34,744 nt of DNA from Candidatus Woesearchaeota archaeon. Lineage in GTDB: Archaea > Nanobdellota > Nanobdellia > Woesearchaeales > WJIZ01. A program made the translations under genes and the position numbers. Below, piece after piece: positions 16,864 to 19,363 of the stretch. The notes under the pieces were generated by a model. The model made no database searches. It had not been told where the DNA came from and worked only from the letters and a program-made list of their open reading frames with translations. Numbering within the stretch: the first letter of the stretch is position 1; every line of letters begins with the position of its first letter. The stretch lies in assembly GCA_018221205.1 (NCBI GenBank), contig JAAOYF010000012.1, positions 1 through 34,744 of the forward strand. The letters run 5' to 3'.

Positions 16864-16979
16864 CTGATAAAATTTAATGGAGATTGGTTTTTAAATCTTT
16901 GCTTTGAAATGATTTATAGAAACTTGAGAATTATAAACTCCCTGGATTTCTTATATAATCATCATCCTAATAGTTTAAA

Positions 16980-17558
16980 TTGAGTAAACGATTCTTCTTT
17001 GGAATGGATCCTTATACCTTACCTAGAAATTCCTTAGATCGTGCCCGTGTATTGGCAAGTGAACTCAAACCTGGAAATGCCATACTTGTGCATCAGGGTG
17101 ATAATTTTACTGGAAGGAATGATCTTCTTATTTTCCAAGGATATGATATCCCTTCTGAGGTTTCTACTAGGGGTAAAGAACTTACGATTTATGGCTCTCC
17201 TCATTTTGTTCTGGAATTTGATGACCAAGGAAGGACCAACCCCCGAAAGGGAAGAGACTATATTAACATCAAAGATGATAGATTGGCCTATGTTGTGACG
17301 GGCAGTGTAATACCTCATGCAGTAAGGAGGATCGGAGAAACGAGAGAAGGTCCTATCGCTGGCCCTGGCCAATATGAAGAAATGCTTGAGGATGTGGCAT
17401 CATTTCAGGGAAGAGGTAGAATTCCGCGAGAATTCGTCGATGCTGTTGTCCGTTTCCATACTGGTATTGCGACGATGAAAACAACTATGATTGGCCATAC
17501 GCTTTCTCAATACCCCTTACCAAGGAAAACCTTAATAAATCTGTTCGAAATGGCTTAG
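16980..17558 (+). CDS. hypothetical protein (orphan-like)
   Basis: 192-aa ORF filling the intergenic space; T-ending-codon bias unlike its neighbours; start (TTG 16980 or ATG 17004) uncertain. Confidence 0.55.
   Translation: MSKRFFFGMDPYTLPRNSLDRARVLASELKPGNAILVHQGDNFTGRNDLLIFQGYDIPSEVSTRGKELTIYGSPHFVLEFDDQGRTNPRKGRDYINIKDDRLAYVVTGSVIPHAVRRIGETREGPIAGPGQYEEMLEDVASFQGRGRIPREFVDAVVRFHTGIATMKTTMIGHTLSQYPLPRKTLINLFEMA
17523..17540 (+). promoter_or_regulatory. BRE/TATA promoter of the outer tRNA-Ser
   Basis: Purine-rich AGGAAAA followed by TTAATAAA (17532-17539), about 25 nt upstream of 17564. Confidence 0.6.
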
Positions 17559-17585
17559 GATATGCTGACGTCGCATAACCTGGTA

Positions 17586-17642
17586 TGCTCAAAAACGCTT
17601 CGATGTGTTTTTGGCACGCCAAAAAGCTTTGCTTTTTCGGCG
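17586..17642 (+). repeat. twin-hairpin insertion 1 (D-loop, position 21/22 or 22/23), 57 nt
   Basis: TGC-T-CAAAAAC...GTTTTTG-GCA then CGCC-AAAAAGC-TTT-GCTTTTT-C-GGCG. Confidence 0.85.
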
Positions 17643-17678
17643 TTGCGGTGGCCTTGAGAGCCACTTTCCGCAAGGATA

Positions 17679-17832
17679 CTGATGAGAATTTCCCTTGATG
17701 CCGTCGTGGCACAATCTGGTACTGCGGTGGCCTTGAGAGCCACTTTCCGCAAGGATATCTCGGTTCAAATCCGAGCGACGGCGTAATGAGGGAAATTCTC
17801 ATTGCACAATAAGACCTATGGTCTTATTTGTA
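17679..17832 (+). repeat. twin-hairpin insertion 2 (154 nt) carrying a full tRNA in its first loop
   Basis: TGATGAGAATTTCCCT (17680-17695) pairs with AGGGAAATTCTCATTG (17789-17804) around the inner tRNA; second hairpin AATAAGACC-TAT-GGTCTTATT. Boundaries ambiguous by 2 nt. Confidence 0.85.
17700..17783 (+). tRNA. inner, uninterrupted tRNA-Ser(UGA)
   Basis: GCCGTCG/CGACGGC acceptor plus G, GCA/TGC D-stem, GTGGC-CTTGAGA-GCCAC, long variable arm, CTCGG-TTCAAAT-CCGAG; 84 nt, no encoded CCA. Confidence 0.95.
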
Positions 17833-17842
17833 TCCCGGTTCA

Positions 17843-17893
17843 TCCTCAAAAATCGTAGATTTTTGGGAACTCGGGGAGCTTTGCTCTCAGAGT
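17843..17893 (+). repeat. twin-hairpin insertion 3 (T-loop, TTCA^AAT), 51 nt
   Basis: TCC-T-CAAAAATC-GTA-GATTTTTG-GGA then ACTC-G-GGGAGC-TTT-GCTCTC-A-GAGT. Confidence 0.85.
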
Positions 17894-17909
17894 AATCTGG
17901 GCGTCAGCG

Positions 17910-17915
17910 TTTTTT
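17910..17915 (+). terminator. oligo-T terminator of the outer tRNA
   Basis: TTTTTT directly after the discriminator base. Confidence 0.6.
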
Positions 17916-17919
17916 AGAA

Positions 17920-19314
17920 TTATGCAGCAACTTTCTGCTCAGCAAGATAGGTATTGGCTATTGATTTGAGTGTGTTATGTGAATATCGTGCCATCAAATG
18001 ATTAACATGCTTTTTATCAAACCGAAGGTTATCCAACGTCGCAAACTTCTCATTTCTGGGTCGGTATGCCTTGAGGAGATCGGGTTCAGCTCGACTTAAA
18101 GCGACTACTTGCTCGTTTGTTAGATTCAGTTTCTTGCTGACTTTATCAATTTGATATGTTGCTCGATTATAGGTTTTATCTCCGGCATGGAGTGTATACT
18201 GTTCCAGTTTCTTATAGGATCCATCATCAGTGAGGGTGAAAAGTGCTCTGTTCGTTGGAATGTTCACTCCGTTTTCTCTCAATTCACTCTTAATCTTAAC
18301 CGTGTCAAGTTCCTCGATATCTTCGGAATCATCGAATTTTAAAACTCTGTATCTCTTGTCTCCACTCACTTTAAAATCTACTTCATTTATTTTTTTCGCA
18401 ACATCAGCAACATTGAGATACGCCCTGTCATTAGCTGTCCTGGTTTTTCTAATAGTGCCTTCAGCGAGACATTCTTCGAGTGAAATTCCAATCTCAGCAA
18501 GTTTTTTATCAGCAAGATGATAGCTCACTTCACCATCTATTGGTTGTCGAATTAAGCGGTCCCTTACTCTTGAGCCATAAAAAGTTTGGCCGGCGACATG
18601 CACTGACGCATGTTCTTCTTTGTCAAGAACTTGCTCTAGCTTGTCTTCTGGAATTTTTGTATATCGGGAAAGTTCTTTTTTTGATAGAATTCCACTTTGC
18701 TTACGGAGATCATTCATTTCTTCCTTGTCAAAATATATTTTGCCATGCACCTTTCTTTTCTTAAGTCTTCCACTTTTCATTCCCAGTGCTCTTAACGTTT
18801 GCACTGTTTCTTCTAGTGGGACTTCCCAGGATAATTGCCCTTTTAGTTTACTAATATCTTGATCTGAGAATTTAAATGCGCTACCGTCACGATAGCCGAT
18901 TTCGTCTCCGCTTGATATTGCTCGCTTGATTTCTTCTACTGACCGTTTTGACAATCGAGATGCTTTTTCCAATGTATGGCAGTATGTATATTCTGGGTCC
19001 CATGGCAGAGTCCCCTGAAGTGTCGAGATATCTTCTTCAGGAAATCGAAGATTTTCTCCTTCCCTGAATGGTTCGAGAATCCCTTCACCAACAGCTCGCT
19101 TTACTTCATCACCCGATCTGCCAGATCGTTGTGCAATTTCTTCAAGTAAAAGGCTTGCTTTTGGTTTTGTAGGTAAAGTCATGTCCTTGTTCTGCATCCA
19201 AGGTACGGAGAATTCATCCTTTTCGTGCCATTTCCTGCTTACGTATTCTGCTGCTTTCCCTATGGATCCAGTAACCTTCCCCGCATATCCCAGCGCCTTC
19301 TTGAACATACCCAT
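17920..19314 (-). CDS. protein with multiple excisionase/MerR-like (HTH_17-like) winged-helix repeats
   Basis: Two clear tandem repeats (LEEIAQRSGRSGDEVKRAVGEG.LEPFREGENLRFPEEDI and LEKASRLSKRSVEEIKRAISSG.EIGYRDGSAFKFSDQDI) plus weaker copies. TATA-like box near 19337-19344 suggests ATG 19314. Confidence 0.65.
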   Translation of the reverse strand: MGMFKKALGYAGKVTGSIGKAAEYVSRKWHEKDEFSVPWMQNKDMTLPTKPKASLLLEEIAQRSGRSGDEVKRAVGEGILEPFREGENLRFPEEDISTLQGTLPWDPEYTYCHTLEKASRLSKRSVEEIKRAISSGDEIGYRDGSAFKFSDQDISKLKGQLSWEVPLEETVQTLRALGMKSGRLKKRKVHGKIYFDKEEMNDLRKQSGILSKKELSRYTKIPEDKLEQVLDKEEHASVHVAGQTFYGSRVRDRLIRQPIDGEVSYHLADKKLAEIGISLEECLAEGTIRKTRTANDRAYLNVADVAKKINEVDFKVSGDKRYRVLKFDDSEDIEELDTVKIKSELRENGVNIPTNRALFTLTDDGSYKKLEQYTLHAGDKTYNRATYQIDKVSKKLNLTNEQVVALSRAEPDLLKAYRPRNEKFATLDNLRFDKKHVNHLMARYSHNTLKSIANTYLAEQKVAA

Positions 19315-19363
19315 ATCATGCACAATTGGCCAGCCTTTTAAAAAGTTTTCGTCTGCTACTACT

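Follow-up and report, generated by a model that had tools for sequence, protein, structure and literature searches.

Nested tRNA-Ser genes in archaea: a recurrent and apparently undescribed architecture

How does a complete tRNA-Ser gene come to lie inside another tRNA-Ser gene, and which of the two supplies the cell with tRNA? The question is raised by a locus in a 34,744-nt stretch of DNA (the window), which is contig C44 of a 1.28-Mb archaeal genome, 95% complete, designated G000; other genomes and loci are labelled with G and L numbers. Exosome, proteasome and gyrase B genes were located near the locus. Its features, in window coordinates on the forward strand, are the following.

17523–17539, forward: BRE-like purine run and TATA-like box, putative promoter; the box starts 32 nt 5' of the outer gene
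17564–17585, forward: outer tRNA-Ser exon 1, 22 nt (acceptor 5' strand, D-arm to nt 21)
17586–17642, forward: D-arm insert at 21/22, 57 nt, abutting bulged hairpins 17586–17616 and 17617–17642; z −4.0
17643–17677, forward: outer exon 2 (D-stem 3' strand, UGA anticodon arm, variable arm), from the sequence
17678–17699, forward: left arm of cassette hairpin 1 and short leader of the inner gene; insertion at GGAT^ATCC
17700–17783, forward: inner intact tRNA-Ser(UGA), 84 nt, with G73 and no encoded CCA (ARAGORN and Rfam)
17784–17805, forward: short trailer and right arm of cassette hairpin 1, from the fold
17806–17831, forward: cassette hairpin 2, 26 nt, 25/26 identical to hairpin 2 of the G003 nest
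17832–17842, forward: outer exon 3 (T-stem 5' strand, T-loop to nt 57), from the sequence
17843–17893, forward: T-loop insert at 57/58, 51 nt, abutting hairpins 17843–17868 and 17869–17893; z −4.9
17894–17909, forward: outer exon 4, 16 nt (T-stem 3' strand, acceptor 3' strand, G73)
17910–17915, forward: T6 run, probable archaeal oligo-U terminator

All three inserts were of one design, two abutting hairpins without a linker; an additional base usually lay close to the foot of each, on the 5' arm in the first hairpin and on the 3' arm in the second. The middle insert, a 154-nt cassette between the variable arm and the T-arm (V/T cassette), was placed at the centre of GGAT^ATCC, with a boundary slidable by 1 nt (exon 2 ends at 17677 or 17678), and the loop of its hairpin 1 was replaced by the inner tRNA, flanked by a few nucleotides of leader and trailer. 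An earlier sequence-only reading of the locus had given the exon pieces correctly, but had missed that each insert is a pair of abutting hairpins and that the inner tRNA of the middle insert occupies the loop of the first one. The 356-nt region folded with z = −10.7, and none of 100 shuffled sequences was equally stable. Homologues of the D-arm insert and of the T-loop insert were present in other outer genes (L141, at the same site, and L006, L066 and L131, respectively). An Rfam search over the inserts at E up to 10 returned chance matches only, and nothing was found in a scan of the locus for sigma-70 promoters and terminators, which is unsuited to an archaeon.

The inner gene displayed the cloverleaf, long variable arm, G73 and invariant bases of a functional tRNA-Ser and was the only intact Ser(UGA) gene in the G000 assembly. 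It was recognized by ARAGORN and by Rfam RF00005 at 17700–17783 (54 bits, E 4e-9), confirming that an intact tRNA-Ser(UGA) lies inside a second one. The outer pieces of 22, 36, 10 and 16 nt were joined in silico (17564–17585, 17643–17678, 17833–17842 and 17894–17909) and formed, as had been proposed, an 84-nt tRNA with 7/7 acceptor and 5/5 T-stem pairs. ARAGORN called the joined sequence as Ser(UGA) up to threshold 114, the corresponding values being 118 for the inner gene and 116–118 for the other three Ser genes of G000. Neither refuting outcome foreseen in the sequence-only reading was observed, given this score and the recurrence of the layout described below. Outer exon 2 was identical to the inner gene over 35 nt, a tract comprising the anticodon and variable arm and bounded by inserts. 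The two genes differed at 11 structure-compatible positions, in line with the earlier view that they are distinct genes and not a tandem copy. The assignment of promoter and T6 to the outer gene only was also upheld, as a TATA-like box was detected at −32 of the outer gene and none before the inner one; such a box was present at −29 to −38 in 23 of the 27 other tRNA genes of G000.

The same arrangement was sought elsewhere, and 25 non-redundant nests, all with one insertion site, were tabulated from genomes and metagenomes. A 5' junction pattern gave 19 matches in 185,579 species genomes (11 full nests, 1 partial nest, 5 outer 5' halves only and 2 unrelated sequences) and 26 matches in metagenomes (11 new nests, 12 repeats of other loci and 3 unrelated), and the nest pattern had no match in viral contigs. 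A strict 3' pattern was found in 7 of 401 genomes of the order of the window, with no match of the reversed control; one of the seven genomes (G371) is unpublished and L057 has the same letters in the match, so that without them the counts are 6/401 and 24 nests. Three loci stand outside the 25: L073 at a contig end, L053 with a scrambled 5' side, and L006 (G014 C40:560–960), which has another insertion site. L006 represents a second nest type, in which an intact Ser(UGA) gene is located in hairpin 2 of a double hairpin at T-loop 57/58, its hairpin 1 closely resembling hairpin 1 of the T-loop insert of the window.

The named nest records were mostly from Woesearchaeota and Nanoarchaeota. Nest anticodons were UGA, GGA, GCU and CGA, and the inner anticodon, read by eye after intron removal, equalled the outer one in 25/25 nests. 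Hairpin 1 was kept in all 25 and hairpin 2 in 24 of them, with very different sequences. Among six genomes of the same family, two (G003 and G006) had the same nest beside purF, and the close relative G001 had a plain Ser(UGA) gene. A genome of another family, G008, contained a three-level nest with damage growing outward. Two Ser loci of G008 were nested three deep, L005/L059 (UGA, complete) and the scrambled L053 (GGA), and their cassettes were related. Six records (L052, L060, L061, L062, L065 and L069) carried the title 'uncultured Methanosarcinales archaeon'; these titles are probably wrong, judging by the near-identity of the L060 nest to that of G247 from the order of the window.

Such recurrence in separate assemblies is a strong argument against mis-assembly. 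An assembly chimera or a one-off local tandem duplication might be suspected from the direct repeats at the locus and from the contigs of one public run, possibly the source sample, in which no piece spans 17630–17886; a second run gave no match, and these data count as evidence neither way. Contigs of the first run did match the window at 16900–17629 and 17887–18302 with zero differences, so that both flanks are identical to an independent assembly. Against a chimera stands also the same breakpoint and hairpin architecture at 25 loci with different sequences, one of them in a single-cell genome record, and the 11 structure-compatible differences between the inner and outer gene speak against a chimera and a duplication alike. 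This explanation is considered very improbable. A joint between 17586 and 17759 in the run contigs (52 other letters, a 25-nt side) was taken as the tRNA of another organism.

The integrity of the two layers was markedly different. All 25 inner genes had complete D, anticodon and T stems together with U8, G18G19 and G73, and a few contained introns, at 37/38 or 59/60. Outer genes, classified by eye, had exon defects in 11 of 25 cases (L003, L052, L056, L060, L068, L121, L135, L139, L141, L143 and L144), such defects being disrupted stems, the deletion of a base, or loss of G73 or of the 3' end. A further five (window, L063, L066, L074 and L131) carried extra inserts without a full bulge-helix-bulge (BHB) motif, and nine were clean apart from the cassette. 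This asymmetry is biased, because the search pattern demanded an intact inner 5' end, and the 25 nests are related and not independent; for both reasons the Fisher values calculated for it are too strong. The outer gene of L060 was decayed and that of its near-identical relative L074 was not. Half-deleted shells were found at L054, L058, L067 and L070. An acceptor stem with 7/7 pairs was retained in 21 of the 25 outer genes (L121 being counted through G-U pairs), and most of these stems were unlike the inner one. Among the 401 genomes, only G394 had an empty cassette; it lay in a truncated 3' copy that immediately follows an intact Ser(UGA) gene, and none was found in a stand-alone gene; the only empty T-loop insert in this set was that in the outer gene of the window.

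Potential splicing of the outer gene was assessed through the BHB motif, whose central helix comprises 4 bp between exon nt −6 to −3 and the intron end and is accompanied by two 3-nt bulges. This helix scored 4/4 pairs (two of them G-U) for the D-arm insert, 3/4 for the V/T cassette and 1/4 for the T-loop insert, which has no BHB. The D-arm insert had neither linker nor tail and an inner helix of 1 bp. Both the D-arm and the T-loop insert folded without a 3' tail and cassette hairpin 2 reached the last base, whereas a BHB intron has an inner helix starting from intron nt 2 and a 6-nt 3' tail. The T-loop insert of L066 reached 2/4, and no cassette had both BHB helices together with covariation. 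For the stand-alone tRNA genes of G000, 26 of 27 cleanly aligned inserts had a central helix of at least 3/4 (18 at 4/4 and 8 at 3/4) in a generous test that allowed sliding and from which 13 of 40 insert rows were dropped as misaligned; most of these introns had a 6-nt unpaired tail in the fold. The Val(UAC) and Gln(CUG) genes of G000 had been considered as stand-alone counter-examples with double hairpins and were rejected, because a BHB-type intron with a 6-nt tail is a possible reading of either insert (the central helix of the Val(UAC) insert being 2/4 only and Gln(CUG) being read by eye). A 2-nt stagger at the ends of the cassette, reminiscent of RNase III, was likewise dropped as a trivial consequence of the palindromic target.

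A single splicing endonuclease (EndA) domain match was found in G000, a protein of 184 aa most similar to the alpha subunit of N. equitans. The protein lacked a 6-residue insertion present in that subunit, which is taken to be the L3 specificity loop. The available text of PMC5829648 links this loop to broader EndA specificity, and alpha4 EndAs with the loop in DPANN archaea to more disrupted tRNAs. G000 also encodes RNase P RNA, an RNase Z-like gene, RtcB and a CCA enzyme, which provides an ordinary exit route for the inner tRNA. On contig C31 (L021:248–1788) the splicing endonuclease gene was divergent from the RNase Z-like gene. Only 10 tRNAs of G000 were called without the intron option, and many of its single-copy tRNAs had BHB introns at 29/30, 30/31, 53/54 and 59/60 despite the one EndA without L3. 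Several introns were swollen by AAAAATC/GATTTTT hairpin modules.

The explanation to which we lean, with roughly even confidence, is that a mobile double hairpin breaks a tRNA-Ser gene and carries a rescue tRNA, the inner gene being the working one and the outer gene a shell. According to this model, a non-coding cassette of two abutting, blunt-ended, bulged hairpins would insert at the centre of GGAT^ATCC in tRNA-Ser genes and, lacking a BHB, would stay unspliced and inactivate the gene. It would persist because the loop of hairpin 1 contains a complete tRNA-Ser with the same anticodon, flanked by a short leader and trailer. A single transcript of about 350 nt would run from the outer promoter to the T-run, and RNase P, RNase Z and the CCA enzyme would free the inner tRNA from it, leaving the outer gene as a shell. 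The shell may subsequently gain more double hairpins (D-arm, T-loop), undergo partial repair through gene conversion, with the inner copy as donor, and decay or collapse. As the cargo bears the same target site, re-invasion would produce a triple nest in which the old inner gene becomes the new shell, and leftover 5' and 3' tRNA-end repeats would probably be remains of older shells. The T-loop insert without a BHB, the EndA without L3, the one-sided damage and the recurrence count for this model. The nine clean shells count against it, as do some perfect BHB introns at unusual sites (L123, L124, L138 and L072), the softness of the BHB test (4/4 for the D-arm insert and 3/4 for most cassettes), the persistence of the nest at orthologous loci, the failure to find a Y1 transposase, a tyrosine recombinase or close dispersed copies of the arms in G000, a cargo that was not simply co-inherited, the biased search and the relatedness of the nests.

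The sequence-only reading had offered two alternatives, a precursor yielding two tRNAs and an inner copy that rescues a disabled outer gene using its promoter. The rescue is favoured here, given that the assembly has no intact Ser(UGA) besides the inner gene, that damage across the nests affects the outer copies, that the T-loop insert has no BHB and that EndA has no L3 loop; the former is kept alive by the nine clean outer genes, several perfect BHB introns and the purF locus occupied in three genomes. In that case, the inner tRNA would be released by RNase P and RNase Z, the double hairpins would be cut from the outer precursor by a relaxed EndA or a non-BHB route, and the defective outer copies would mark lineages that lost outer maturation. 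We regard this as unlikely, though a serious candidate. The joined outer sequence scored nearly like live genes (114 against 116–118), 14 of 25 outer genes were without exon defects and 21 had all acceptor pairs, BHB introns were kept intact in outer genes, and the nest persisted at orthologous loci over saturated distances. The association of more disrupted tRNAs with L3-containing alpha4 EndAs of DPANN archaea (PMC5829648, as far as its available text goes) points the same way, but the G000 enzyme has no such insertion. Further points against release of an outer tRNA are the one or two central pairs of the T-loop insert here and in L066, the lack of any cassette with both BHB helices and covariation, the confinement of damage to outer copies and the lack of an empty cassette in stand-alone genes of 401 genomes. 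Nested tRNA genes might on this view be added to the disrupted tRNA genes as a fourth class, with expression of both layers and removal of blunt double hairpins without a BHB, and triple nests would then yield three tRNAs; this is held to be equally unlikely. Splicing of the outer gene, if true, would be categorically new and would mean that archaea have a non-BHB splicing route.

The shell could also be kept by selection as something other than a tRNA, an RNA scaffold or decoy that closes and protects the precursor, sets inner processing or absorbs integrating elements or nucleases aimed at tRNA-Ser genes. We hold this to be quite improbable. The preservation of hairpin 1 (25/25) and hairpin 2 (24/25) despite very different sequences would fit a scaffold, but a mobile element would equally show such conservation of structure; outer acceptor pairing outlasts other features, yet shells were often half-deleted (L054, L058, L067 and L070). 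The strict 3' pattern occurred in only 7 of 401 genomes and close relatives such as G001 had a plain gene, which also disfavours a selected role. In favour of a selected shell are mutually related ORFs (33% identity) in L124 and L138, which start just past the outer 3' end and by eye look like integrase N-termini. L122 had a nest as in L061 and a downstream flank as in L124; from the sequence, this pattern suggests an element integrated at the outer tRNA end.

The mobility that the preferred explanation presupposes was considered through comparison of cassettes and their surroundings. Hairpin 2 of the G008 nest was identical to that of the empty element of G394, a genome of a different family, and the UGA nest L060 shared an identical hairpin 2 with the GGA nest L143. 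An identical T-loop insert was present in L066 and L131, whose main cassettes differ. Hairpin 2 of G000 and G003 was identical at 25 of 26 positions; the neighbouring purF genes differed at 81 of 112 fourfold sites and the inner tRNAs at 14 of 64 compared positions. Across nests with near-identical hairpin 2, the inner tRNAs differed at 12–14 of 64 nt, and thus the cargo was not simply co-inherited. At the purF locus, shared by G000, G003 and G006, fourfold sites were saturated and the outer acceptor stems were different and fully paired. L061 and L123 had a common locus, outer acceptor and cassette type, with a neighbouring protein only 42% identical. Unchanged inheritance of a dead shell is impossible over such distances, which leaves two options, spread and re-invasion by the cassette or selection on the shell; persistence at orthologous loci is compatible with purifying selection acting on the shell and with repeated invasion alike. 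Re-invasion itself is indicated by the triple nests. In L058 and L135 the same intron was present in the inner and outer gene, which argues for copying or conversion at the DNA level and not for insertion of a mature tRNA.

No Y1 transposase (PF01797) was detected in G000, G008 or G394, which are incomplete genomes; PF01797 was present in G003 and in G001, whose Ser(UGA) gene is plain. Tyrosine recombinase (PF00589) was not found in the 95% complete G000, the ORFs flanking the nest matched no integrase family, and no close dispersed copies of the cassette arms were found in G000. These two ORFs, 16980–17558 (forward) and 17920–19323 (reverse), had no firm family assignment. The former lies between purF and the tRNA, its end overlapping the tRNA promoter, and was absent in G003. 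The latter had a weak HTH_17 or excisionase match only, and the idea that this downstream 467-aa ORF is a homing endonuclease or integrase was rejected, there being weak HTH_17 similarity and no PDB match.

Several known systems resemble the nests. In split and permuted tRNAs, the halves are joined via long complementary flanking arms, and the outer tRNA halves of the nests are held by such arms as well. However, they lie in cis around an intact copy with no BHB at the junction, in contrast to split tRNAs, and the outer exon order is collinear, in contrast to permuted ones. Short bulged hairpin pairs with a patchy distribution are known from REP/REPIN, IS200/IS605-derived palindromic elements and TA-duplicating MITEs. 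The nest hairpins share both features and the V/T cassette is also readable as TA-flanked with short inverted ends, but it lacks a conserved tetranucleotide foot, the D-arm and T-loop cassettes lack a target duplication, the T-loop insert is not readable as TA-flanked as in an IS630/Tc1-type MITE, and a Y1 HUH transposase, the enzyme of IS200/IS605 and REP/RAYT elements, was not found in G000, G008 or G394.

Archaeal multi-intron tRNA genes are spliced at BHB motifs, and their introns were transposed in Thermoproteales (Fujishima et al. 2010, as summarised in the accessible text of PMC4033280). The nests likewise have several non-canonical insertions per gene, with related inserts at the same positions across genomes, and G000 has many true BHB introns as well as EndA and RtcB; the nest inserts, in contrast, are blunt double hairpins without full BHB geometry, one with a whole tRNA gene, and were found in outer copies, not in stand-alone genes. 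A box C/D guide RNA sits in the archaeal tRNA-Trp intron (PMC4090602, available text), another functional RNA encoded within a tRNA-gene insertion and made from the host transcript. The nest differs in holding a complete tRNA of the host's identity, in not being a canonical 37/38 BHB intron and in having a possibly dead host. Integrative elements such as SSV and pNOB8 use tRNA genes as att sites and restore them, as in the model for Caldiarchaeum tRNA-Thr (available text of PMC3293823). Here too an insertion into a tRNA gene leaves one working copy and displaced tRNA fragments, the working tRNA being retained in 25/25 nests, but internally to the element. Moreover, the cassette is a non-coding hairpin of about 70 nt without an integrase, the replacement is a whole gene inside it and not a partial gene at the element end, the old gene is still present as two halves that pair, and the cassette can nest in itself. 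The nest works most like a target-restoring, tRNA-integrating element, yet is not a member of this group, owing to the lack of an integrase and the internal whole-gene replacement.

No description of nested tRNA genes was found in a literature search of mostly open-access texts without supplements, which could hold single cases. A preprint on 208 complete Nanobdellota genomes with tRNAscan-SE counts (10.64898/2026.05.13.725050) makes no mention of nests in its available text. The architecture is real and recurrent and apparently undescribed. Annotation tools report the inner gene only, which renders the nest pattern invisible in standard tRNA surveys. Judging from its gene content, G000 would have to cut its sole Ser(UGA) tRNA out of the transcript of another tRNA gene. 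Read cautiously, the cassette would be a minimal selfish element, some 70 nt long, which disrupts an essential gene and brings a whole replacement with it. The nests would then give a direct view of the invasion and replacement of archaeal tRNA genes and offer a testable source of tRNA-end repeats in DPANN archaea.

Repeats of tRNA ends were noted elsewhere in G000, at C39:209–358, C52:17459–17730, C12:16541–16726 and C53:7680–7829. The first 12–16 nt of the intact Ser(GGA), Ser(GCU) and Val(GAC) genes were copied 64–88 nt upstream together with hairpins, a TATA box preceding the upstream copy, and Ser(GCU) and Glu(CUC) were followed by a 3'-end copy. Such 5' and 3' copies may be remains of older shells. 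At C34:6447–7345, the initiator tRNA-Met gene had a perfect BHB intron at 53/54 and was followed 3' by a 244-aa minus-strand ORF with two LAGLIDADG-like motifs (recognized by eye) and then by a duplicate tRNA 3' end; this locus is likely a homing endonuclease island.
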